A DNA stretch of 64,000 nucleotides, from IMG/VR virus record IMGVR_UViG_3300044697_000009, positions 1 through 64,000 of that record. The stretch is one strand, 5' to 3'. Source of the stretch: a virus. A program made the position numbers and the translations under genes. Positions 23,901 through 62,234 of the stretch are shown here, in pieces. The notes beneath the pieces were generated by a model. It did not search any database. It was not told where the DNA came from and worked only from the letters and a program-made list of their open reading frames with translations. Each line of letters starts with the position of its first letter. Within the stretch, counting starts at the first letter, position 1.

Positions 23901-26193
23901 CGCCCAAAAATGCATCTGGAGTATCATCAGTAACAATAATATAACCATTTGATATATCAGTATTAGTCGGATAAGCTTCGTAGACTTGTTGAAGTTCATC
24001 ACTAGGTGAGACATCCGTCTGAATTACAGAAGGGCCAGTTGCTATTGCTTGAGGAGATCTATAGATTTGAAAAAAGTCGTTTGTAGTAACACCTTGAGGT
24101 ATAGTTATTCTTAAGACAACATTAGCTGTTGTCGTTAAGCTAAGCCCTGAGATATATTTTGACATAGAATCTGGAGATATAACAGGAGTTGTTCCAGAGG
24201 TAGGCTCAGTTTGAAGTGCAGTAAGTATTGACCTAAGATATGTTTGTAATGCAACGAGTTCTGCATCGGTAGCTGGAGAATCAGGAACTGCCGGTTGAGT
24301 AATATTTGTAAATGTATTGCTATTAATTGTAGCTGAAACTACACTAACAAGTCCGGTAGCTGATGTCAAAAAAGTAATACCAGGTCCAAAAGTAAATGTC
24401 ACACCGGTATTATTGACGTTAATTCCACTTGAAATAGTAACGGTATTAGGACCAGCAGCTCCTATTGCTGTTACATACGTATAACTAGGAATTCCTGTAC
24501 CGGATACAAGGCTTCCTACAAAGATTCCTGAGATATCGGCTAAATTTGTTAATACGTTATTTGCAACGCCAGACGTTGTCGTGTTAACTGTGAATACTGT
24601 AGTACCTGCAGTCGCATCAATAGAAGGACCAACATTTGCGTTAGTAATCGTTAAAAGATTTGATATAGTAAAGCTACCAGCACTACCAGCAACAGTAACA
24701 TCAACTGGAACTGTAAATTGAGTTGAATTCAATACAGTCACGGTCTGAGACCCATCGATACTAGGTGTTGAGTTACTACCAGAAATCGTAATAGTATCGC
24801 CAGTAGCTAATCCATGTGGTGTCAATGTAGTGACTAAAGTAGGATTTGCAACAGAGATATTTGATATATTTATAGTTGAAGACGTAGTTGTAATACTAAA
24901 ATCTGATGTAGCTCCTAGAATTGCTGCAGATGTTTGACTAGCAACAGTAGCGGCGTCGTCATTTGTAGTTAAAGACACCTGAATTCCAGTCTTACCAGGA
25001 AGTGCCGGGTCATTACCTGCCGATGAGACTTGATACCAAACGTAGTATTCTGTTACGTTATTGGCATTATTAAGCGTGAAATAGCTTCCAGCTAAACTCT
25101 GAGAATAATCAGCACCAGTTGCAACAGTTGTTACTTGTGCAGTACCACTTGATTCATTACCGGTAGTAGTAAAAGTATTAAACACACTAGATACTGTCTC
25201 AGGACCATCTAGTGTTCCAGTTGTGGGAGTAAATCCCGAAAGATTAATCGATTGGCCAGATACGAAATAATCATTGGGATCTACTCCCGTGTTAGTAAAG
25301 GCGACACTGGCAACGCCATTACTTATGCTACTACCAGAGATCTGAAGCGGAGCAACTGATACTTGATCGGCATAAACTATATCAGCGTCTAATTCTTCTG
25401 TCAGATTTATTAAATTTTCTTGTAATTCAATGCCTGTTGCATTTGTTGATAATCCGTATGTTTCAACAAATTGATTAAACGTAATAAGGCTCGGATTACT
25501 TGAGTTATTTGCTGTATCATCTAATGCACCTAAAAGATTCATAAAATCTCTTAACAAAAGACTAAGCAATGGATTATATATAGTTACAGGCTCACTTGGA
25601 GATCCATAAATCAAGTTATCATTGACGTCAATTGTATTCCATAATACACGATACTCAACACCAGCGTCTTGAGTCATATATCCAGTTTGACTACCAGTTG
25701 TGACATCAAGTGTTGCAGTTAAATCTAAAGCATTGATGCCGCCAGCATTAGTTATATATCCATCCGCAGTTGTGAATTGACTTGGATCAGAAGCTGAGAT
25801 TTTTTGAACACCATTTGAAGTCGTGAAATAAAAATTACTATTGGCCTCAATAAAACGAATTCTACGTCCTGTTTGAGGTTCAGTATAACTACCGGCAAAT
25901 GTATTAAAGATCTCATTTCCACTTGTATCAGTTGTACCGGTATCGTATTGAAGACTTGTTGCAAAATGTCTTAAGATTCTATTTTTGTAGACTGCAAGTT
26001 GTTTTGCTCTATCGTTTTCATCTCCAAAGCTTTGGCCATAGAGTTGATATCCACGACGACTCTCAATAACGCCATCACGTTTAATAATAACGTTAGTTGC
26101 TTCCATTAAACTACCAGGAGGAGTTAAATCTGGATCAAGAGAGTTCGGTTGTGGATTCAAACCGATAGCTTTTAAGAGAACACTTGCGGACAT
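20998..26193 (-). CDS. Tail nozzle / tubular protein B-like, with inserted repeat domains
   Basis: 1731 aa; NV.I.RDGVIESRRG start, RIYYS..QPEAVP, LFVFKEDGLFRISG beta-propeller-like segments; follows the adaptor. Confidence 0.7.
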   Translation of the reverse strand: MSASVLLKAIGLNPQPNSLDPDLTPPGSLMEATNVIIKRDGVIESRRGYQLYGQSFGDENDRAKQLAVYKNRILRHFATSLQYDTGTTDTSGNEIFNTFAGSYTEPQTGRRIRFIEANSNFYFTTSNGVQKISASDPSQFTTADGYITNAGGINALDLTATLDVTTGSQTGYMTQDAGVEYRVLWNTIDVNDNLIYGSPSEPVTIYNPLLSLLLRDFMNLLGALDDTANNSSNPSLITFNQFVETYGLSTNATGIELQENLINLTEELDADIVYADQVSVAPLQISGSSISNGVASVAFTNTGVDPNDYFVSGQSINLSGFTPTTGTLDGPETVSSVFNTFTTTGNESSGTAQVTTVATGADYSQSLAGSYFTLNNANNVTEYYVWYQVSSAGNDPALPGKTGIQVSLTTNDDAATVASQTSAAILGATSDFSITTTSSTINISNISVANPTLVTTLTPHGLATGDTITISGSNSTPSIDGSQTVTVLNSTQFTVPVDVTVAGSAGSFTISNLLTITNANVGPSIDATAGTTVFTVNTTTSGVANNVLTNLADISGIFVGSLVSGTGIPSYTYVTAIGAAGPNTVTISSGINVNNTGVTFTFGPGITFLTSATGLVSVVSATINSNTFTNITQPAVPDSPATDAELVALQTYLRSILTALQTEPTSGTTPVISPDSMSKYISGLSLTTTANVVLRITIPQGVTTNDFFQIYRSPQAIATGPSVIQTDVSPSDELQQVYEAYPTNTDISNGYIIVTDDTPDAFLGAFLYTDAANGTGILSANQAPPYCVDMNYFKNCMFYANTRSPHQLTINLLGVAKMITDFNNSITPLLMITDGIHTTTYNFATGTPQITDVVTKAASTLNSSGAASYFTINSAENQTQYYVWYELGTATDPAPAGLTGIRVSVNSGDNANTVALKTNYTIARYNYDFITTVSGDDVTITTVGDGITSASAAGTSGFTVTTTQSGTGENAATNTVLLSTSESPATAVDETARSLVRIINQNADSSVNAYYLSSSLTVPGQISLQERTLSSNPFYVIANDENVGTSFNPDLSPSDTITNITAANPTVITATSHGLTNLDQVLIIGSNSTPNIDGLYTATVIDANTFSIPVHVTVAGTTGSIRAADGAPVSDDQVLPNRIYYSQYLQPEAVPLVNTIDVGAKDKAILRIFPLRDSLFVFKEDGLFRISGEVAPFNLALFDSSVILIAPDSVDVQNNLVFAWTTKGIHTVSEAGVNIISRPIDTLVLPLATTQYTNFNSATWGIGYESDNSYTVYTVSSTDDTYATIAYRYSTLTNTWSVFDKTDTCGVINSADDLQYLGAGDTNYIEQERKNFDRTDYADREIDVQLAVDAYFGTQLLFTGLSNVDVGDVLVQEQLLTVYGYNNLLQKMDTDVTLTHTYTENLEISAGVDLRTAVDALINQVANDSKRLAQSGATAADVYEAFETIEGTGTITNISAADPTVITCDNHNLQTGRVITISGSNSTPSIDGTYQVTVIDDNTFSVPVSVTVPGTSGSFFVDNEDFRDIQTSFNSMINTMNTDLGCTFHNYSTVTETTIQEAIITSIQSVNNANSNIYVNYALDFVVGPITIYNSIPTSVTWAPQTLNDPLGLKHMREATLMFQNKAFTTATMSFSTDLLPAYIPITIPGDGNGIFGFTGTGVNMPNSSGGNPGFGGNFFGGISNSAPFRTYIPRNCQRCRYLNCQFQHQIAREEFAIYGLSLTGEISQSTRAYR

Positions 26194-37744: not shown

Positions 37745-38726
37745 ATTCTATTACAACTAAACCAGGAGATCCTGAACCACCATTTCCCGCATTGCCTCCA
37801 GCTCCACCACCTGCAGTACCGGCGCCACCTCCGCCACCTCCTCCGCCACCACCACCACCACGTCCTCCAACTCCAGCTGTACCAGATGTCGCATTAGTAC
37901 CAGTACCTCCTGTACCAGATGCTACTCCAGTTCCACCATTACCACCATTTCCAGCATTACCACCTGAAGGAGAAGGTAAATTTCCTAATGTAAATTCATC
38001 TCCAATACCACCTACACCGCCTGCACCACCTCCGCCTCCACCACCAGAAGAACTATTTCCAGTTCCACCTGTACCAGCTGTACCAACTACAGGAGCAGTA
38101 AATGAATTTCCATAAAAAAAACTACTACTAGCAGGAGTTGCTGGAGTTCCGCCATTATTACCACTTGCTCCTGTAGAACTAGCGCCACCAGCTCCAGATC
38201 CAGAAGCTGCTGTTTGTGAACTAGGTGTATATAACAAACCATAACTTGTTGATGCCGCAGCTCCGCCTATACCCCCGGCACCTCCAACTGATGCGGATGA
38301 TGCTATTAAACCTCTAGTGCCATTACTACCACCTGTTCCACCTAATGTTGTAGATACAAGTCCAACGATTGCCGATAATCCACCTTGACCACCTGAACTC
38401 CCATTTGTTCCATCGGCTGGAGTACTTGCTCCTCCAGTTCCTGCAGTTCCACCACTACCACCGGAACCGACAGTAATTGTATATGTTGTACCAGGAGTAA
38501 CAGCTAATGAAACTTCTATAAATGAAGTTGGCCCACCTCCACCTCCACCATTTCCACCGCCTCCACCACCGCGATTTGTATTTATTTGACTTCCCGCACC
38601 ACCACCACCTCCACCTCCACCACCAGCTCCTGGACGTAAGAAAGCTTTTATACACGTTACTCCCGCAGGACATGTCCACGTTCCTGATGTAATAAATGTT
38701 TCATATATTTTTCTTGTTTGAGGCAT
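37734..38726 (-). CDS. Glycine-rich tail/adhesin protein, paralog 3
   Basis: FITSGTWTCPAGV...GAGGGGGG...GSPGLVVIEY. Confidence 0.75.
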   Translation of the reverse strand: MPQTRKIYETFITSGTWTCPAGVTCIKAFLRPGAGGGGGGGGGAGSQINTNRGGGGGGNGGGGGGPTSFIEVSLAVTPGTTYTITVGSGGSGGTAGTGGASTPADGTNGSSGGQGGLSAIVGLVSTTLGGTGGSNGTRGLIASSASVGGAGGIGGAAASTSYGLLYTPSSQTAASGSGAGGASSTGASGNNGGTPATPASSSFFYGNSFTAPVVGTAGTGGTGNSSSGGGGGGGAGGVGGIGDEFTLGNLPSPSGGNAGNGGNGGTGVASGTGGTGTNATSGTAGVGGRGGGGGGGGGGGGAGTAGGGAGGNAGNGGSGSPGLVVIEYEE

Positions 38727-39724
38727 TACTCAGTCCATTCAATAACTATTAAACCAGAAGACCCATTTCCACCAGCACCACCAGAACCTCCAGCACCACC
38801 AGATACTAATCCCGCACCACCACCGCCACCGCCGCCTCCTGAACCGCCACCACGTCCTCCAGTTCCGTTTCCACCAGATGAACCATTTGTTGCAGCACTA
38901 GCAGTTGCAGTACTTCCACTAGTTCCATTTCCGCCGGCTCCGCCGTTTCCACCGGAAGGTGCCGATTGTCCATAAACTGAATATTCATCAGCTGTCGCAC
39001 CACCACTTCCTCCACCGCCAGCACCTCCTCCCCCATATAAGCTACTAGAACCTGTTCCGTTAGTGCCTCGTAATCCATTTGTTGAATTAGCGTTAATATA
39101 TATGAAATATGAATTTGTTGTTCCTGGTGTTCCACTTGTTCCAGCTCCACCATTTCCACCAGTTGAACTCCCCCCTACGCCACCAGCAGCTCCAGGTCTA
39201 GCAGTACCAGAAGTTAAAACTCCAACACCAAATGATGTGCCCGCTGTACCAACTGCACCAACTGCTCCTCCAGAACTAGAAGTACCAGGATTTCCTGGAC
39301 CTCCGCCGCCTCCTGGGTATCCGCCAACTGCGTATATTCCATAAGGAATTCCTAAAGTAATTAAATTTCCAAAAGATGATATACCACCAAATCCTCCAGA
39401 ATTTCCAGTAGTACCAATATTACCAGCAGAACCTCCATTAGCGGCAGATCCACCTGAACCACCAGCTCCGATTGTTACTGTATATGTAGTTCCAGGGACA
39501 ACTGTTAATGGGAAATACCAACCAGATGCAGCACCACCAGAACCTCCAGAAGAACCACCTGCGCCGCCTCCTCCTGCTCCAGTGTAACCTCCACCTCCTC
39601 CACCGCCACTACCACCTCCACCAGCTCCTGGTCTTATATAAATTCTAATATTTTCAACACCAGCCGGTGCTGTCCAAGTTCCACTTGTTGTAAATATTTG
39701 AGAAACTTTTCTAGATTGAGACAT
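38726..39724 (-). CDS. Glycine-rich tail/adhesin protein, paralog 2
   Basis: FTTSGTWTAPAGV...GSSGLIVIEW. Confidence 0.75.
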   Translation of the reverse strand: MSQSRKVSQIFTTSGTWTAPAGVENIRIYIRPGAGGGGSGGGGGGGYTGAGGGGAGGSSGGSGGAASGWYFPLTVVPGTTYTVTIGAGGSGGSAANGGSAGNIGTTGNSGGFGGISSFGNLITLGIPYGIYAVGGYPGGGGGPGNPGTSSSGGAVGAVGTAGTSFGVGVLTSGTARPGAAGGVGGSSTGGNGGAGTSGTPGTTNSYFIYINANSTNGLRGTNGTGSSSLYGGGGAGGGGSGGATADEYSVYGQSAPSGGNGGAGGNGTSGSTATASAATNGSSGGNGTGGRGGGSGGGGGGGGAGLVSGGAGGSGGAGGNGSSGLIVIEWTE

Positions 39725-39978
39725 TACCCATTACCATTAACTATAATAGTTCCATCGGGAGAAGTATAAGTATCTGGATTTGGATATATAGGAGGTAGAT
39801 ATGACCAACCGATTTGTGGTATACAGCTAACTCCATTTAAAGTTAAATTATCTATTCTATTTACGTAATCGAAATTTTCTCCACCTAATGGATTAACAAA
39901 GAATAAATCAAGTATTGAATCATCATCTAATTCAAATACATTAACAATAAAACCTTGTGAAATTTGCGCGTATGTCAT
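39724..39978 (-). CDS. Small protein, possible adhesin partner or chaperone
   Basis: YAQI..G.IVNV...IGWSY pattern often seen beside Gly-rich fibre genes. Confidence 0.55.
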   Translation of the reverse strand: MTYAQISQGFIVNVFELDDDSILDLFFVNPLGGENFDYVNRIDNLTLNGVSCIPQIGWSYLPPIYPNPDTYTSPDGTIIVNGNG

Positions 39979-40958
39979 TATTCAATCCATTCTATAACTA
40001 ACAATCCATTACTTCCTTGCGATCCTGCGGCACCATTTCCACCACTTCCACCAGTTGTACCGCCAGCTCCGCCACCACCGCCTCCTCCACCACCAGCACC
40101 ACCTCTACCGCCAGTTGGTTGAGAACCAGGATTTGTACCAGATACGCCATTTGAACCTGTAGTTAAACTTGCATTTCCACCATTACCACCGTTACCAGCT
40201 GTCCCACCTGTTGGAGCGCCAACTCCATAGACATTGTATTCATCACCATTTGAAGCAGTGCCACCAGCGCCGCCAGCGCCACCACCACCGTTTGTTGATA
40301 TTCCGGTGCCACCTGTTCCCGAAGTTGCTAATGTTGGTATAGAATTTATTGGAGAAAAAAATATATTAGCGGCAGGAGTTCCTACCGTTCCACCATTACT
40401 GCCATTAGCACCTGTATCAGAACCACCTGCTCCACCGGAAGAACCATTAGCACCAAGACCAGGTAATAGTCCATATACGCCACCATTTGAAGCCACACCG
40501 CCTCCAGTTCCTCCCGTTGTTGAAGTTCCTGCACCGCCTAAATGACTAGCCAAACCACCATTTCCTCCTCCAGTTATATTATTTTGACCAGCAGAAATTA
40601 AAGATCCAAGACTTGTTATTCCACCATTACCACCGGCAGATCCTGCAGTTCCAGGATTTCCAGCAGAACCTCCAGTTCCAGCTGTTCCGCCTGAACCCCC
40701 AGAACCAACTGTAACCGTGTATGAAGTTCCTGGAGTAACCATTAAAGATGTATAAAATCCAGAAGCCGCTCCTCCAGATGATCCTCCACTTCCGCCTCCT
40801 CCACCACCGCCAGATGAGCCCGAATATCCTCCCCCACCACCTGCACCACCTCCGCCACCTCCGGCGCCAGGTCTGATGTAAACTCTTACACTAGTAACGC
40901 CAGCAGGAGCCACCCATGTACCAGAAGTTATGAAAGTTGTAAAAAGTTTACGACTCAT
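39978..40958 (-). CDS. Glycine-rich tail/adhesin protein, paralog 1
   Basis: FITSGTWVAPAGV...GSNGLLVIEW. Confidence 0.75.
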   Translation of the reverse strand: MSRKLFTTFITSGTWVAPAGVTSVRVYIRPGAGGGGGGAGGGGGYSGSSGGGGGGGSGGSSGGAASGFYTSLMVTPGTSYTVTVGSGGSGGTAGTGGSAGNPGTAGSAGGNGGITSLGSLISAGQNNITGGGNGGLASHLGGAGTSTTGGTGGGVASNGGVYGLLPGLGANGSSGGAGGSDTGANGSNGGTVGTPAANIFFSPINSIPTLATSGTGGTGISTNGGGGAGGAGGTASNGDEYNVYGVGAPTGGTAGNGGNGGNASLTTGSNGVSGTNPGSQPTGGRGGAGGGGGGGGGAGGTTGGSGGNGAAGSQGSNGLLVIEWIE

Positions 40959-40961
40959 TTC

Positions 40962-43781
40962 TCAAATCATCCACCAATTCCCGGCAGATCCAACATGAAA
41001 TGTCCAAGAACCATAATTTGTATATAAAACTTTTGATGCACTTAATCCTTCAATCATTTCTGAAGAATGCGGAGCAATTGTAATGGGATAAGTCTGAGCA
41101 TTACCAGAACGGTCTTTAATAACAATAGTTCTACCAACAGTTGGTGTCGGTAATGTAATAGTTATAGCAGCAGATTGATTACAAAGAATTACATCATCAG
41201 TAGTAGTCGTATCAACTGTATAATTACTTGTGATAGTTTTAGTAGTTCTATACATACCACCATTTATTTGATGTATAGCAGTACTAGATGATTGAGGACC
41301 TAGAGTAACACCGCCAGAATCAACTCTAAAAGCTTCAGCTGATGTCACAGATCCAGATGGAGTTACATTTATTGTGATATAAGTATGATTAGATGAATTC
41401 GTGAAAGTTTCACCGGCAATAAAATTCAAAGACCCAGTTGATGCTGAAGGAAATGTAGATGTTCCATATCCTTGGCCGGAGATAAATCCTAAAATATTAC
41501 CTGTTGTGGCAGCGGTTGGAGACCCTGATGTACCATTTGCGTATCTATTTCTAGTACCAACTGTTCCACCATATCCGGTTTGTACAATTCTTTGGGTAGA
41601 TCCGGTATTATTAACAATATCAATTGCCGTTCCAGAAGCTGCAGAAGTCTCACCAATAGCAATCTGGTTCACGTTATTGATAGAATAATTGCCCATGTTG
41701 AGATTTGCGGCTTGTGTACCAAGACTTTGAAGTGATGATGTAACAACAGTGGAATTCAATGTCGTTCCAGTTAAAGTCCCAGCTGGAGCGATAACTACGT
41801 TTTCAGATGCAGCAGTAATCAATCCTTTTCCGTTCACGGTGAATGAAGGAATTGATGTCGATGATCCAAAACTACCAGTATTTGAATTCACAGTTGCAAG
41901 CGTTAAAGCTGCACTTCCAGGACCAGATGCACTGCCATCTCCCGTCAAAGCTGTAATAGTGCCAAGCATTGTGTTGACTTGTAAAACTGTCAGATCACTA
42001 GGTGTTGCGGAACTTCCAGTGTTATTACCTTTCAATGTGTCTGACGACATTTGGGATAATTTAGAGTTTGTTACACCGTTGTTTTTAACTTCAAGGTTAT
42101 TTGAACCATTTATATCTAATGTTGAATTATCAACATTGACGTTCCATGTAACACCACTATTTGATAATCCTAGTCCTGGGTTGACTACAAATCCAGTTGC
42201 TACTTGTACCCACATTGTTCCGTTGTAATAATAAGTATCACCAGCATCATAGGATAAAGGATTGTTATCTAATACTAACCATCTGTTTTCAGGAACAGCA
42301 AATGAATATGCGTAAGAACCGGGCGTGGCATTTGTAACCGTTGCTATATTGTCTTGATGTCCTACAAAATTACCACCTAAAGTCCCAGTTTGGCTTATAT
42401 TAACGCCTAATCTATCGCCAGTTTGAACTGCTCTTCCAAGAGCGTCATGCCATGTAGTTCCATCATAAAATACAAAATGTCCAGCACCGATAGATGACCA
42501 GGCACCAGTTGGAGAAGCTCCAATTAAATACGTTGTAGTATAATTAACCGGTGATACAGGAGGTGTTGATAAACTATCATCTATTAAATTAGCTATGATT
42601 ATTGGATTTTGAGGATAGATTCCTTGAGCTAAGTAGTCAACATAGTTCTTCGTTGCCGCGTCTTGATTCGAAGTAGGATCAGTGACATTATGTATAAAAT
42701 TTGAACCCATATCAAGGGCCCCGCTCATTGTGTCACCAGTCTTTAAAACGTTTAACGAAGCCGCACCTGTTAAACTAGCGGTGATTGTTCCAGCAGAAAA
42801 ATCTCCAGAAGAATCACGTTCGACTATCGTTGATGCAGTATTAGATGAAGTAGCAGAATCTAGGATTACTTTATCAGTCGCAAGCATAAACCCGTTATTT
42901 GATTCAGTAACAGCAGCATGTAATGTAGGAGATGTTTGATTGCCGTGAGCATGAACGTGATCAGCTAATGCTAAATAAGATGAAGATCCAGCAACGTTTG
43001 AAGTCCCGATTTGAACCGGAGCAGTTGAATCGTTAAGCATTGCTGAGACATTGGCGACAGAAAGATCTGAGGCATTTGCTGTTGAACCAGAGTTATTACC
43101 TTTGAGAGTCAAGGAAGCCATTTGAGCAAGCTTACTATTACTTACTACATTGCTTTGAATTGTGGAAGAAACTGATCCAGGTCCTGTTGCAACAACATCA
43201 CCAGTTAACGCCGTAATAGCTTCATCAGAAAACGCATTGATTTGTCCTTGGATTTTTTCAAGGGCAGAAAGAATAGAATCTGTTGCTGAGATCGGTGTAT
43301 TAGCGCCGACAGAATATCCTGTTAATAATTTCCCAGTAACAACAGTAGACGCTATTGATGTACTAGATTGAGTACCTGTAACATCACCTGATAAAGATCC
43401 AGTAAATCCTGTTGAGTTACCGGATAAACTAGCAGTAATAATACCAGCTGAGAAATTACCTGAAGAATCACGTTCGACTAATGTAGAAGCGGTGTTAGTT
43501 GAAGTCGCTTCTGAAACAGTTGTAACAGTATTTGCGATATTAGTTGCTGATTGTCCGCCAACTGAATTAACGGTAGCTGAAGCACTTCCAGGGCCAGTAG
43601 CTGAGACATCCCCAGTTAAAGCTGAAATAAAATCAGTAGAACCGAATTGATATGTAGTACCATCACTGTCTTGAAGATATATACTAGTACCTTGAATATA
43701 TAATTCGATGAATCCACTTGGAGGAGGCGAAGGAGTTGTTGAATATTGTGCTAAAACTAATAAAGAACCTGGATTTGCCAT
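40962..43781 (-). CDS. Long tail fibre protein
   Basis: Repeats ALTGDV.ATGPGS (x3), NTASTxVERDSSG.FSAG.ITA (x2), DAATKNYVD. Confidence 0.8.
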   Translation of the reverse strand: MANPGSLLVLAQYSTTPSPPPSGFIELYIQGTSIYLQDSDGTTYQFGSTDFISALTGDVSATGPGSASATVNSVGGQSATNIANTVTTVSEATSTNTASTLVERDSSGNFSAGIITASLSGNSTGFTGSLSGDVTGTQSSTSIASTVVTGKLLTGYSVGANTPISATDSILSALEKIQGQINAFSDEAITALTGDVVATGPGSVSSTIQSNVVSNSKLAQMASLTLKGNNSGSTANASDLSVANVSAMLNDSTAPVQIGTSNVAGSSSYLALADHVHAHGNQTSPTLHAAVTESNNGFMLATDKVILDSATSSNTASTIVERDSSGDFSAGTITASLTGAASLNVLKTGDTMSGALDMGSNFIHNVTDPTSNQDAATKNYVDYLAQGIYPQNPIIIANLIDDSLSTPPVSPVNYTTTYLIGASPTGAWSSIGAGHFVFYDGTTWHDALGRAVQTGDRLGVNISQTGTLGGNFVGHQDNIATVTNATPGSYAYSFAVPENRWLVLDNNPLSYDAGDTYYYNGTMWVQVATGFVVNPGLGLSNSGVTWNVNVDNSTLDINGSNNLEVKNNGVTNSKLSQMSSDTLKGNNTGSSATPSDLTVLQVNTMLGTITALTGDGSASGPGSAALTLATVNSNTGSFGSSTSIPSFTVNGKGLITAASENVVIAPAGTLTGTTLNSTVVTSSLQSLGTQAANLNMGNYSINNVNQIAIGETSAASGTAIDIVNNTGSTQRIVQTGYGGTVGTRNRYANGTSGSPTAATTGNILGFISGQGYGTSTFPSASTGSLNFIAGETFTNSSNHTYITINVTPSGSVTSAEAFRVDSGGVTLGPQSSSTAIHQINGGMYRTTKTITSNYTVDTTTTDDVILCNQSAAITITLPTPTVGRTIVIKDRSGNAQTYPITIAPHSSEMIEGLSASKVLYTNYGSWTFHVGSAGNWWMI

Positions 43782-55145: not shown

Positions 55146-55218
55146 AGTCCCGTAGCTCAATGGTTAGAGCAGGCTCTTTATAAGGGTCAGGTTGCTGGTT
55201 CGAGTCCAGCCGGGACTA
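55146..55218 (+). tRNA. tRNA-Ile(UAU)
   Basis: Acceptor AGTCCCG/CGGGACT; D arm GCTC/GAGC; anticodon loop TT-TAT-AA; T arm GCTGG-TTCGAGT-CCAGC; discriminator A; no encoded CCA. Confidence 0.9.
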
Positions 55219-58499: not shown

Positions 58500-58705
58500 A
58501 ACCGTTAGATGAAATCTCTTTGAAGTTTTTAAAGCCCGGCACGAAACTTAAATGTATTAATGCCATATATGAATTGAGAAATGGAGAAATATACGAATTT
58601 ATGGAAATTTATTCCATTAACAATGGAAATATAACAATTAATTTAAAAAATGTTAAACATACTTATTTCATTAACCGTTTTACACTAGACTTGGGATGTG
58701 AATGA
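58496..58705 (+). CDS. FTLDL-family small protein, copy 2
   Basis: LKFLKPGTKLKC...EIYEF...RFTLDL. Confidence 0.7.
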   Translation: MKPLDEISLKFLKPGTKLKCINAIYELRNGEIYEFMEIYSINNGNITINLKNVKHTYFINRFTLDLGCE

Positions 58706-59349
58706 AAGCATTTAATAACAATACTTACATAAAACAAGAGATCGTGGGAAATCTAGTAAAATCAAGATTCACATCTCAAAACATTACACTACAAACGGAT
58801 TCATTACCGAAGTGGTTAGTCTTTTATTTAAATTGCCAACCTGATAAAAATAGAATTCTTGAAGTCATCAACGCTATAGAGCCGGGAATGGACTTAGATA
58901 ATATAAAGCAGTTATTCATGATTCATGTCCTTGAATTCTCACTACTTCAGTTCGATCATTCAAAAAATCTGAAAGTTAAAAAAGCGATTATACAAGTAAT
59001 AAATCTTTATAAACAAAACAATACTGACAAAAAAAAATGGAATGCCGCTCAATCCGCCGCTTATGCCGCCTCTAATGCTACTTATGCCGCTAATGCCATT
59101 AATGCCGCTTATGCCGCTAATGCCGCCTATGCCGCCTCTAATGCTACTTATGCCGCTAATGCCGCCGCCTATGCCGCCTCTAATGCTACTTATGCCGCTA
59201 ATGCCGCTAATGCCGCCGCCTATGCCGCCGCCTATGCCGCCGCTAATGCTACTTATGCCGCTTGTGCCGCCGCTTATGCCGCCGCTCAAAACAGGTTATT
59301 AGACTACTTAATTAAATTAATACAAGACTTAAAGGTAAATGCTGCATGA
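58702..59349 (+). CDS. Protein with Ala/Tyr/Asn repeat tract
   Basis: AAYAA/NATYAAN repeats ending QNRLL..LI.L. Confidence 0.7.
   Translation: MKAFNNNTYIKQEIVGNLVKSRFTSQNITLQTDSLPKWLVFYLNCQPDKNRILEVINAIEPGMDLDNIKQLFMIHVLEFSLLQFDHSKNLKVKKAIIQVINLYKQNNTDKKKWNAAQSAAYAASNATYAANAINAAYAANAAYAASNATYAANAAAYAASNATYAANAANAAAYAAAYAAANATYAACAAAYAAAQNRLLDYLIKLIQDLKVNAA
59041..59286 (+). repeat. Degenerate coding tandem repeat (AAT/TAT-GCC-GCN)
   Basis: TATGCCGCCTCTAATGCTACTTATGCCGCTAATGCC occurs three times. Confidence 0.9.
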
Positions 59350-60526: not shown

Positions 60527-61000
60527 ATGGAAACTGTTCTTAATACAAATGAAATTAAAGAAATTGCAAATTCATCTAACACAGCTAAAGCGATTTTTAA
60601 TGAACTCGGCAGACGTGTCAGGTCCCGGTCGAGACTTGATCTTCGAAAACTGAAATACGAAATTTTGTCAAGTGGAAATCAAGTAGTTGACGAAGAATAT
60701 GTCGAAACGTTTAAAAAACTTCAGGCCTCGGGAGCTGGTAAACTCGTTAGCGGAAGACTTGGAAATCCAACTAGATTTATTTGGAATTATAAATTGAAAG
60801 ATGTTACAAATTCCGCATTTGAACCTGAAACTAAAGTTAATGAGCCTGGTATTAAACCGGTGAGACGTAAATCCAAGACTCGATCTAAGCACAAAGACTT
60901 GTCATTGGCGCCCATTACAATAACGTTTCAACTTCCAAATGATATCAGAAGCGAAGATTTGAGTGCATTAATGAGTCTAGTAAAGGAATTATCGAAATGA
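60527..61000 (+). CDS. Putative winged-helix DNA-binding protein
   Basis: FKKL...G.GK.V.GR.G.PTRF.W helix-wing pattern. Confidence 0.5.
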   Translation: METVLNTNEIKEIANSSNTAKAIFNELGRRVRSRSRLDLRKLKYEILSSGNQVVDEEYVETFKKLQASGAGKLVSGRLGNPTRFIWNYKLKDVTNSAFEPETKVNEPGIKPVRRKSKTRSKHKDLSLAPITITFQLPNDIRSEDLSALMSLVKELSK

Positions 61001-61323
61001 AAGTATTAGTGATTGAAAGTGACTACGACCTGGCTGAGAGTTTAAAACTAGCTATCAATAACCTTGGTGCAGAAGTTGATATAGCATTTGATATAAAAAC
61101 GGCAGCTAAGCTTTTGAATTACCATTATGATTTAATACTAGCTGACCATATGCTATTAAAAGTATCAGGGAATTTTGATATCTTATCTAAAGTCAAGTCT
61201 AATTCGGTCGTAGTCCTTTCTTCACTAACACCTAACGAAACAAAGGAATTGAAGTACAACCATATACAAAAACCATTCGGATTAAAAGAAATAGAAGATT
61301 ATATAAACCCTAAACACCCGTAG
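60997..61323 (+). CDS. Stand-alone response regulator receiver (CheY-like) protein
   Basis: KVLVIESD, YDLILAD phospho-acceptor, VVVLSS, QKPF. Confidence 0.8.
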   Translation: MKVLVIESDYDLAESLKLAINNLGAEVDIAFDIKTAAKLLNYHYDLILADHMLLKVSGNFDILSKVKSNSVVVLSSLTPNETKELKYNHIQKPFGLKEIEDYINPKHP

Positions 61324-61471
61324 AAGTTTTATACACTTGGATTCTATAATAATTTCCTTATGTTATAGTGTCTGAGTCTAATACTATCTAAGACTTATAC
61401 ATGGCAGAGTTTTAATTCTCTAATGATTTCAATCCCCTAACATTGGCACGAACTGTGAAATACCAATTACC

Positions 61472-61910
61472 AGACAGCACGAGTAACGAGACGATAAGAT
61501 CTACTCGGAAGCAAGTCGAAGTAAGGTGGTTGACTTCAAGTATTGAGATGACATAATGTAGGTAAATTAGTGGACGGTCTTTAGACTTATGGAACTAGTT
61601 CGAAACATTAGTAGTCGGTATCAAGTAAACCTTGCAAGCTTAACAAGTACTATGAGAAAAAGTCGTTGCTTTTTCCATGGGATACGGATGGCGGGTTACC
61701 ATCACGGGACGAATCTCCCGGCGGACAGCGGACCTTACTTACCTCGGGGCTTTAATGCCTAAAACACAGGGGTTATACGGAATCACGAAACACGCGGTTT
61801 CCCAAGAGAAGTACGGCAACGATGCTTTAACCGTGGAAATAAGGATTCTTTCGAATAAAAGTCGAAACGGCGGGATAGCATGGCCTAGGCCTAAACTTTC
61901 CTAGCTGTCT
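61472..61910 (+). ncRNA. Putative large structured non-coding RNA (~440 nt)
   Basis: Ends pair (AGACAGC/GCTGTCT); many nested helices; 8-bp loop pseudoknot; GC-richer than flanks. Confidence 0.65.
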
Positions 61911-61914
61911 AACG

Positions 61915-62127
61915 ATGAGGTCGTTACTGATGAGACTATCTAAAACTGTAATTATTAAAATGACTAGAAAAGATGCCGAAGAATTAGGTCTTCTGATTTG
62001 TAAATGTGGGCATCCTAGAAACAATCATTTTGATTTTGATGAAAAACCTTGCGCACATTGTCCATGTAAATATTTTCACGAAATTTCTCGACGTGGTATT
62101 ATAATTAAATCAAGGAGTAAAAAATGA
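61915..62127 (+). CDS. Small Cys/His-rich protein
   Basis: CKCGH...H...C.HC.C. Confidence 0.6.
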   Translation: MRSLLMRLSKTVIIKMTRKDAEELGLLICKCGHPRNNHFDFDEKPCAHCPCKYFHEISRRGIIIKSRSKK

Positions 62128-62234
62128 TAATTAGTACATCCAATTGCATGGTTTCTTTATTTAATCTTTTTTGGATTTAAAGTAGGAAGAAAATGTAAAA
62201 TGAGATACTTTGAATATCAAGTTAGGAATCGAAA

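Follow-up and report, generated by a model that had tools for sequence, protein, structure and literature searches.

Results

Organization of the locus

The stretch of DNA analyzed here, referred to as the window, consists of the first 64 kb (64,000 nt) of an 85,261-bp phage record in IMG/VR, IMGVR_UViG_3300044697_000009, whose complete genome is denoted G000. Its genes are densely packed. A late block on the minus strand extends over ~11.8–52.8 kb, and many small early genes occupy the plus strand from ~54 kb. Among the latter, a gene-poor, GC-raised gap at 61324–61914 separates the gene of a stand-alone receiver-domain (response-regulator-like) protein of 108 residues (60997–61323, plus strand) from the gene of a small Cys/His-rich protein (61960–62127, plus strand). 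It is the longest gap of the genome that is poor in open reading frames (ORFs). At its downstream edge we observe a type II hammerhead ribozyme motif (61860–61937), preceded by an orphan non-coding spacer or leader of ~535 nt (61324–61859, plus strand). The motif has the same orientation as the early genes, and its predicted cut lies 50 nt upstream of the likely start of the next gene, at 61960.

A type II hammerhead motif at the downstream edge of the gap

All elements of the motif are read on the plus strand, with the core numbering of Perreault 2011 applied to the alignment with the Rfam model RF02276 (Hammerhead_II). The 3′ strand of stem II, AGUC (11.4–11.1, 61860–61863), forms four Watson–Crick pairs with the 5′ strand GACU (10.1–10.4, 61934–61937) at the opposite end of the motif. 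It is followed by the core nucleotides G12, A13, and A14 (GAA, 61864–61866), which are read from the sequence and align to the RF02276 core. Stem III (61867–61908) is composed of the pair A15.1 (61867)–U16.1 (61908) and of 61868–61871/61904–61907, contains one G·U pair, and closes a self-folding insert of 32 nt. Position H17 is C61909, and the predicted cut falls between C61909 and U61910, at a GUC triplet. Stem I (61910–61926) is a hairpin of six Watson–Crick pairs (61910–61915/61921–61926) with the loop UGAGG, or alternatively with a seventh U·G pair and a 3-nt loop. The core segment C3 U4 G5 A6 U7 G8 A9 (CUGAUGA, 61927–61933), placed by the sequence and the RF02276 alignment, then leads into the 5′ strand of stem II. 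The order GAAA, stem III hairpin, UC, stem I hairpin, CUGAUGA, with stem II open, is the topology of type II.

The account of type II hammerheads by Perreault et al. (PMC3088659) gives 13 required core positions (C3 U4 G5 A6 N7 G8 A9 G12 A13 A14 A15 U16 H17) and accepts candidates that have an unmutated core, no mispair beside the core, and no multiple mispairs. In the motif described here, all 13 positions are intact. The pairs adjacent to the core are standard, namely G61934–C61863 (10.1–11.1), U61910–A61926 (1.1–2.1), and A61867–U61908 (15.1–16.1). Stems I, III, and II comprise 6–7, 5, and 4 contiguous pairs, respectively, without a single mispair, in line with all three of the published criteria. 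When 61852–61945 is folded, both the minimum free energy (MFE) structure and the centroid are exactly the hammerhead three-way junction, and stems III and I are kept in the MFE structures of 251-nt and 551-nt contexts.

The complete core, the GUC triplet, the short stem II, and the intergenic location on the coding strand of a phage are features that the motif shares with type II hammerheads as described for RF02276 and in PMC3088659. It differs from the RF02276 members in its low score, in having no pseudoknot of at least 4 bp, in the 32-nt insert of stem III, and in an AT-rich stem I.

Score and occurrence relative to chance

RF02276 aligns over its full length (1–66) to 61860–61944, with 18.6 bits and an E-value of 0.079 in a search of 111 nt with 4227 families. 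As a second measure, we searched with a type II descriptor in which the core words, the U-H step, and minimum stem lengths (4 pairs in stem I, 4 in stem III, and 3 in stem II) are required. Applied to both strands of 14 genomes (2.27 Mb), it returned three matches: G000 61860–61937, G009 704–769, and G011 968–1059. Dinucleotide shuffles amounting to 90.9 Mb gave eight loose matches and none at the observed stem lengths, which corresponds to a chance expectation of 0.2 matches in the real set and 0.015 in G000. With other descriptor thresholds, one match appeared in 39.5 Mb of shuffles, and the reversed real sequence (2.27 Mb) gave none. A looser type II descriptor added one match, in G010, which is likely false (0.8 expected). 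Descriptors for type I and type III hammerheads found none in the 14 genomes. The hammerhead is the only RNA feature of the gap that exceeds chance.

Hammerhead candidates in related peat phages

The three descriptor matches agree in context: each has the orientation of the early genes, precedes an ORF, and overlaps no credible gene. Synteny by tblastn shows that the contigs of G009 and G011 begin just past the late block, so that the early block of each carries its hammerhead within the initial 1.1 kb. The G011 hammerhead is ~2.9 kb upstream of a homolog of the G000 gene at 64627–66015, and the G000 hammerhead is ~2.7 kb upstream of that gene. The candidates in G009 and G011 share with the G000 motif a 4-bp stem II (A..C/G..U), a 6-bp stem I, and the position in the early block. 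The G011 candidate also has a long stem III, as in G000. In contrast to the G000 motif, the G009 candidate has a 7-bp pseudoknot between loop I and the tail; G011 has a 5-bp complement to loop I, but 16 nt away.

An RF02276 search of 35 relatives identified one hammerhead (1/35), in G008 at 24171–24238 (L120:1501–1568). This type II hammerhead scores 35.8 bits (E 1.4e-7), just below the cut-off of 37, and is placed between ORFs of 58 and 169 aa, just 5′ of an ORF. With a stem II of 2 bp, where that of G000 has 4, it belongs to the classic GC-rich Rfam type, and it resides in a foreign GC-rich island with genes (GC 0.45–0.59) of an otherwise AT-rich phage. GGCTAT-like words are repeated upstream of it, at approximately L120:790–1010. 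Outside the core, the hammerheads of the relatives have no sequence similarity to that of G000, and the regions upstream of them are unrelated. MAFFT misaligned the four hammerheads.

Evidence against the hammerhead assignment

Several observations weigh against the assignment. The score of 18.6 bits is half of the RF02276 gathering score of 37, and the E-value of 0.079 is valid only for a 111-nt stretch picked after the motif had been spotted by eye. The hammerhead is unlisted in a 751-nt search, in the search at gathering thresholds, and in a search of the whole genome with RF02276 at E ≤ 10; the stricter filters of these larger searches account for the miss. The candidates of the relatives fare similarly: RF02276 does not report that of G009 at E ≤ 10 even when only 111 nt are searched, and both it and the G011 candidate are absent at E ≤ 10 in a 43-kb search. 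Moreover, the stem differences among the relatives are no independent covariation, because the descriptor that selected them demands pairing.

Structural features also count against it. Other pairings replace stem II when longer stretches are folded, and a hairpin at 61850–61854/61862–61866, which collides with C11.1 and G12–A14, would sequester the latter. No pseudoknot of at least 4 bp between loop I and the 3′ tail was found, the best complement being 3 bp. According to Perreault et al. (PMC3088659), most type II members have this pseudoknot, and in the construct used there its loss lowered cutting activity 20- to >100-fold. Finally, the 32-nt insert of stem III is unusual.

These points raise the alternative that the motif resembles a hammerhead by chance or is an inactive relic, the gap being simply a long regulatory intergenic region. 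The sub-threshold Rfam score, the missing pseudoknot, the long stem III insert, and the competing local hairpins would all fit, and Perreault et al. (PMC3088659) describe some bioinformatic hammerhead matches as inactive false positives. The shuffle expectation obtained with the loose descriptor and the lack of shuffled matches at the observed stem lengths argue in the opposite direction, as do the intact core, the perfect stems, the fitting strand and position, and the same architecture in relatives. We regard both a chance resemblance and a relic as unlikely.

Composition and folding of the spacer

Upstream of the hammerhead, the spacer is AT-rich to ~61440 and GC-raised from ~61600. The GC content reaches 0.475–0.495 at 61600–61899, compared with ~0.28–0.40 nearby and 0.37 for the genome, and 61576–61825 is the only 250-nt segment in the 85 kb with GC at least 0.09 above the mean and no ORF of at least 90 aa. 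A first-pass annotation of this DNA had interpreted 61444–61910 as a structured non-coding RNA (ncRNA) of ~440 nt, with a closing stem and a pseudoknot, of the size class of ROOL/GOLLD-type RNAs and possibly of a new class. Intergenic regions of high GC content are where structured RNAs are commonly sought in AT-rich genomes.

The nine pairings on which that proposal was built are all present, seven of them fully Watson–Crick and two (61513–61519/61530–61536 and 61662–61669/61816–61823) with one G·U each. They do not exceed chance, however: complementary 5- to 9-mers in 61444–61910 are as frequent in mononucleotide shuffles. For k = 7 there are 7, compared with a shuffle mean of 6.0 (129 of 300 shuffles reach 7); for k = 8 there are 2 compared with 1.5 (128/300), and for k = 9 there is 1 compared with 0.4 (78/300). 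The folding energy is no better than that of shuffled controls, whether the whole element, sliding segments, or sub-stretches are considered. For 61440–61915 the MFE is −128.8 kcal/mol (z −1.25), which 11 of 100 shuffles equal, and the minus strand gives z −0.81. Sliding 150-nt segments of the element range from z +0.67 to −1.37, with flanking genes similar; z is −0.69 for 61564–61909 and −1.68 for 61640–61860. The ~440-nt architecture with closing stem and pseudoknot is accordingly at chance level in both its pairings and its energy, and across the spacer, with z-scores from +0.67 to −1.68, neither conserved structure nor a coding signal is demonstrable.

In addition, two of the nine pairings collide with the hammerhead: the hairpin 61850–61854/61862–61866 described above, and the closing stem, whose strand 61904–61910 covers the 3′ strand of hammerhead stem III and the predicted cleavage site. 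The proposed closing stem and the hammerhead fold are mutually exclusive.

Rfam likewise offers no family for the spacer. In the genome, only a tRNA-Ile at 55146 reaches its gathering cut-off, and nothing in the gap does. Searches with Rfam 15 (the 4227 families) at E ≤ 5–10 on 61250–62000, 61324–61600, and 61560–61870 returned noise only, namely mir-239, SNORD65, MIR827_2, and RAGATH-30 (14 bits compared with 59.5). Neither a tRNA nor a tmRNA was detected in the gap by ARAGORN. In contrast to ROOL and GOLLD, the proposed RNA matches no Rfam family, these two included, at E ≤ 10 and shows neither conservation nor a folding signal; the size class and the occurrence in phage-related DNA are all that it has in common with them. 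The assignment to a ROOL/GOLLD-type or new-class large RNA is therefore not upheld. What survives of the proposed structured element is its non-coding look and a structured 3′ part, probably a functional RNA, which is the hammerhead that had been missed; the large architecture does not survive.

Candidate promoters and repeats

The annotation had also placed the start of the RNA at a sigma54-like site. The string TGGCACG-N4-GTGA is present at 61444–61458 and occurs once in the genome. It reads GG-N10-GA, compared with the sigma54 consensus GG-N10-GC, so that the GC of the −12 element is missing, and the neighboring receiver-domain gene has no activator domain; a sigma54 start is not supported. 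The best plus-strand sigma70-like match within 5 kb is a promoter-like site at 61530–61557 (TTGACT, 16 nt, TG-CATAAT; 10/12 matches, extended −10). Such a promoter would start an RNA near 61564, which we take as a lead only: in the region as a whole, sigma70-like sites show no excess (25, compared with 20.5 ± 4.9 in shuffles).

A 13-nt direct repeat is found at 61383–61395 and 61935–61947 (plus strand), 12 of 13 nt being identical. The second copy begins within stem II, covering its last 3 nt (61935–61937), and runs on into the start of the 3′ tail. The copies are 552 nt apart, and no third site in the genome matches with one mismatch or fewer; by our estimate, ~0.15–0.5 such repeats are expected by chance in 700 nt. 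The repeat may mark the borders of an insertion or be a chance occurrence. No terminal inverted repeats like those of miniature inverted-repeat transposable elements were seen by eye. A hairpin at 61373–61397 was weighed as the possible remnant of a pseudoknot like that of the G009 hammerhead; we discarded the idea, since the 8-mers in common are frequent words and the same pattern appears in 8 of 283 genome segments.

Search for homologs of the gap

No homolog of the element was found by blastn among 50,697 phage records, and blastn in the 35 related phage records gave one 22-nt noise match only. A search of 13 whole relatives by nhmmer at E ≤ 10 found no homolog of the gap. An exact 20-nt pattern had no further occurrence in IMG/VR, and back-translated patterns combined with tblastn gave nothing in IMG/VR (82-aa and 63-aa frames) or in JGI metagenomes (82-aa frame). 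In public sequencing runs, a 31-mer search found no homolog beyond the DNA of this phage itself. Such absence of conservation among close kin speaks against an important large RNA.

GC-rich, ORF-free islands do exist in the relatives; they are unrelated to the gap and have no Rfam match. A stretch of ~1 kb in G024:82600–83700 (L089:2600–3700) and G020:1800–2800 (L116) is ORF-poor, GC-raised, and located between divergent genes; the two versions are 87.7% identical over 439 nt, lack an Rfam gathering match, and are unrelated to the gap. Another ORF-poor region, G024:12170–12950 (L085), contains internal repeats of 26–107 nt with 90–100% identity, part of which is common to G020:17663–17811.

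Taken with the folding results, the searches bear on the possibility that a discrete large structured ncRNA of a new class extends from ~61470 or 61564 to 61909, its 3′ end being made by the hammerhead. Such an RNA would fit the longest ORF-poor gap, the only GC-raised ORF-free segment of the genome, and the lack of a coding signal; the promoter-like site at 61530–61557 and the cut at 61909 would bracket an RNA of ~346 nt matching the GC-rich part. Its z-scores of only −0.69, −1.68, and −1.25, the chance-level pairings, and the lack of an Rfam family or of a homolog in the 35 relatives or any collection searched speak against it. Furthermore, the stretches upstream of the relatives' hammerheads are dissimilar to the gap, and a functional large RNA is usually conserved at least in close kin. 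The reading as a large ncRNA is not supported, and we consider it improbable.

Coding potential of the gap

An ORF of 75 aa at 61677–61904 exists, as the first-pass annotation had stated, with conservation of its protein named there as a result that would count against the proposed RNA. No such conservation was found in searches of 5.8 billion and 1.84 billion proteins. In the former, a word-indexed search, the ORF matches itself only. In the latter, a phmmer search of representatives, it matches itself and two repeat proteins, namely a surface protein of 3249 aa, in which eight repeats match, and a protein of 395 aa with BON-like repeats (a label read by eye). We judged these two spurious as relatives, since their architecture is unrelated and they align to the ORF differently.

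The codon log-likelihood ratio (LLR) of the 75-aa ORF is 0.012 per codon, compared with 0.07–0.52 in 13 neighboring ORFs outside the gap and 0.59 ± 0.31 in long genes. Its GC content is flat over the three codon positions (GC1/2/3 of 0.48/0.51/0.53), while GC3 of the 13 neighbors is 0.19–0.40. The other ORFs inside the gap behave likewise, with flat GC1/2/3 and a codon LLR of ~0. Pfam and PHROGs gave nothing for the 75-aa ORF or the frames of the gap, and tblastn of 19 stop-to-stop gap peptides against 13 relatives gave no match (best E 0.032). The stretch looks non-coding, a reading based on the lack of a coding signal, of a family match, and of a credible protein relative.

Could this ORF, or another small one in the gap, nevertheless be a real orphan protein gene? 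The 75 open codons and a public gene call (a cluster with one member sequence from two contigs) would favor this. The codon LLR, the flat GC1/2/3, and the lack of any family match or credible homolog count against it, and no Shine–Dalgarno sequence is read before the 75-aa ORF, while some neighbors have one. We find an orphan gene very improbable.

More plausible, and a real possibility although a tentative one, is that the GC-raised stretch is dead DNA: a decayed gene or cassette from a GC-richer phage or host, kept for the useful hammerhead or promoter that adjoins it. A GC content of 0.47–0.50 in a genome of 0.37 would agree with such an origin. The stop-to-stop frames of 46, 63, and 82 aa overlap in different phases, as in a frameshifted gene, and the G008 hammerhead is found inside a clearly foreign GC-rich island with genes. 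The direct repeat flanking 552 nt and the orphan, hypervariable neighborhood point the same way. On the other side, the direct repeat could be a chance occurrence, and no frame has a credible relative by Pfam, PHROGs, tblastn (with the best E-value given above), or phmmer, the last run on the 75-aa ORF.

Flanking genes and genome context

The upstream receiver gene is supported by Pfam PF00072 (E 1.1e-5, 25.9 bits, under the cut-off of 30.2), by PHROG 731 (E 7.4e-9), and by a codon LLR of 0.314; no activator domain was found in it with Pfam. Weak homologs occur in 2 of 25 related records. In G029, the gap behind a receiver-like gene is AT-rich, unlike that of G000.

For the downstream Cys/His gene, none of the 25 related records has a homolog, and only the gene itself was found. 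The public call gives 65 aa, i.e. a start at 61930, and the listed starts are 61915 and 61930. The real start is probably ATG 61960, which we prefer because 61915 and 61930 fall inside hammerhead stem I and the CUGAUGA core. A hydrophobic mini-ORF of 18 codons (62125–62181) overlaps the end of this gene; its AAGGAG is, by eye, the strongest Shine–Dalgarno-like sequence of the neighborhood. With the receiver and Cys/His genes as anchors, no loci were found in IMG/VR, and the neighborhood of the gap is orphan and hypervariable throughout. Cumulative GC skew gives no sign of an origin at the gap.

The genome carries direct terminal repeats. Its capsid protein retrieves 55 related loci in IMG/VR with 53–78% identity, and no close cultured phage was found. 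The three public runs that match the phage are all DNA runs, from peat metagenomes; they yielded an identical contig of 251 nt and two of 85 kb, the latter possibly the source of this DNA, and no variants were seen. Elsewhere in the window, GC reaches 0.575 at 59000–59300, inside the ORF 58702–59349 and far above the genome mean, and this may be an acquired gene. The coding region 38000–41000 (GC 0.49–0.50, strong negative GC skew) may likewise hold acquired genes.

Discussion

We propose, with a probability of about 0.7, that the gap contains a type II hammerhead that processes an early phage transcript and is preceded by an orphan non-coding leader or spacer. The solid part of this proposal is that the motif is, by its sequence, a new low-scoring member of the known type II hammerhead class, situated in a phage early operon and predicted to cleave.

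From the arrangement of the motif we infer cleavage in vivo and an effect on the mRNA, along the following lines. After transcription of an early polycistronic RNA, stems I and III would fold locally into hairpins, with the 4-bp stem II closing the three-way junction. The RNA would then cut itself between C61909 and U61910, parting the upstream RNA from the mRNA of the next gene. The downstream product would carry a 5′-hydroxyl and a 5′-terminal hairpin (stem I), and the upstream product a 2′,3′-cyclic phosphate. The stability and translation of the flanking cistrons would likely be uncoupled. Hammerheads flanking phage and prophage genes have been proposed to process long phage transcripts and to yield RNAs of different stability (PMC3088659, PMC6765202), and in these accounts, too, the purpose of phage hammerheads is unproven.

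The spacer may hold a promoter, at 61530–61557, and may derive from foreign DNA of higher GC content, as with the island around the G008 hammerhead; folding of it could not be demonstrated. A more ambitious reading, which we hold to be improbable, is that the GC-rich ~350–440 nt are a discrete phage RNA with a function of its own, unique to this phage and released from the early transcript with a ribozyme-made cyclic-phosphate 3′ end. A separate part of this reading is that the hammerheads of low score in G000, G009, and G011 (stem II of 4 bp, stem I of 6 bp; a long stem III in two, no pseudoknot in that of G000) may constitute a subclass, at a fixed place of the early operon of this peat phage group, that the Rfam model misses.

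In place of the claimed new class of large RNA stands a largely ordinary and testable reading: a hammerhead with a probable role in processing an early phage transcript. The ribozymes of G000 and of two relatives score far below the Rfam threshold, yet they agree with the published core and stem criteria and exceed shuffled controls. Because such ribozymes fall under this threshold, phage hammerheads with a long stem III or without a pseudoknot may be under-counted. In three related phages the motifs occupy a similar place close to the start of the early block, a hint of a conserved role in the processing of early mRNA.

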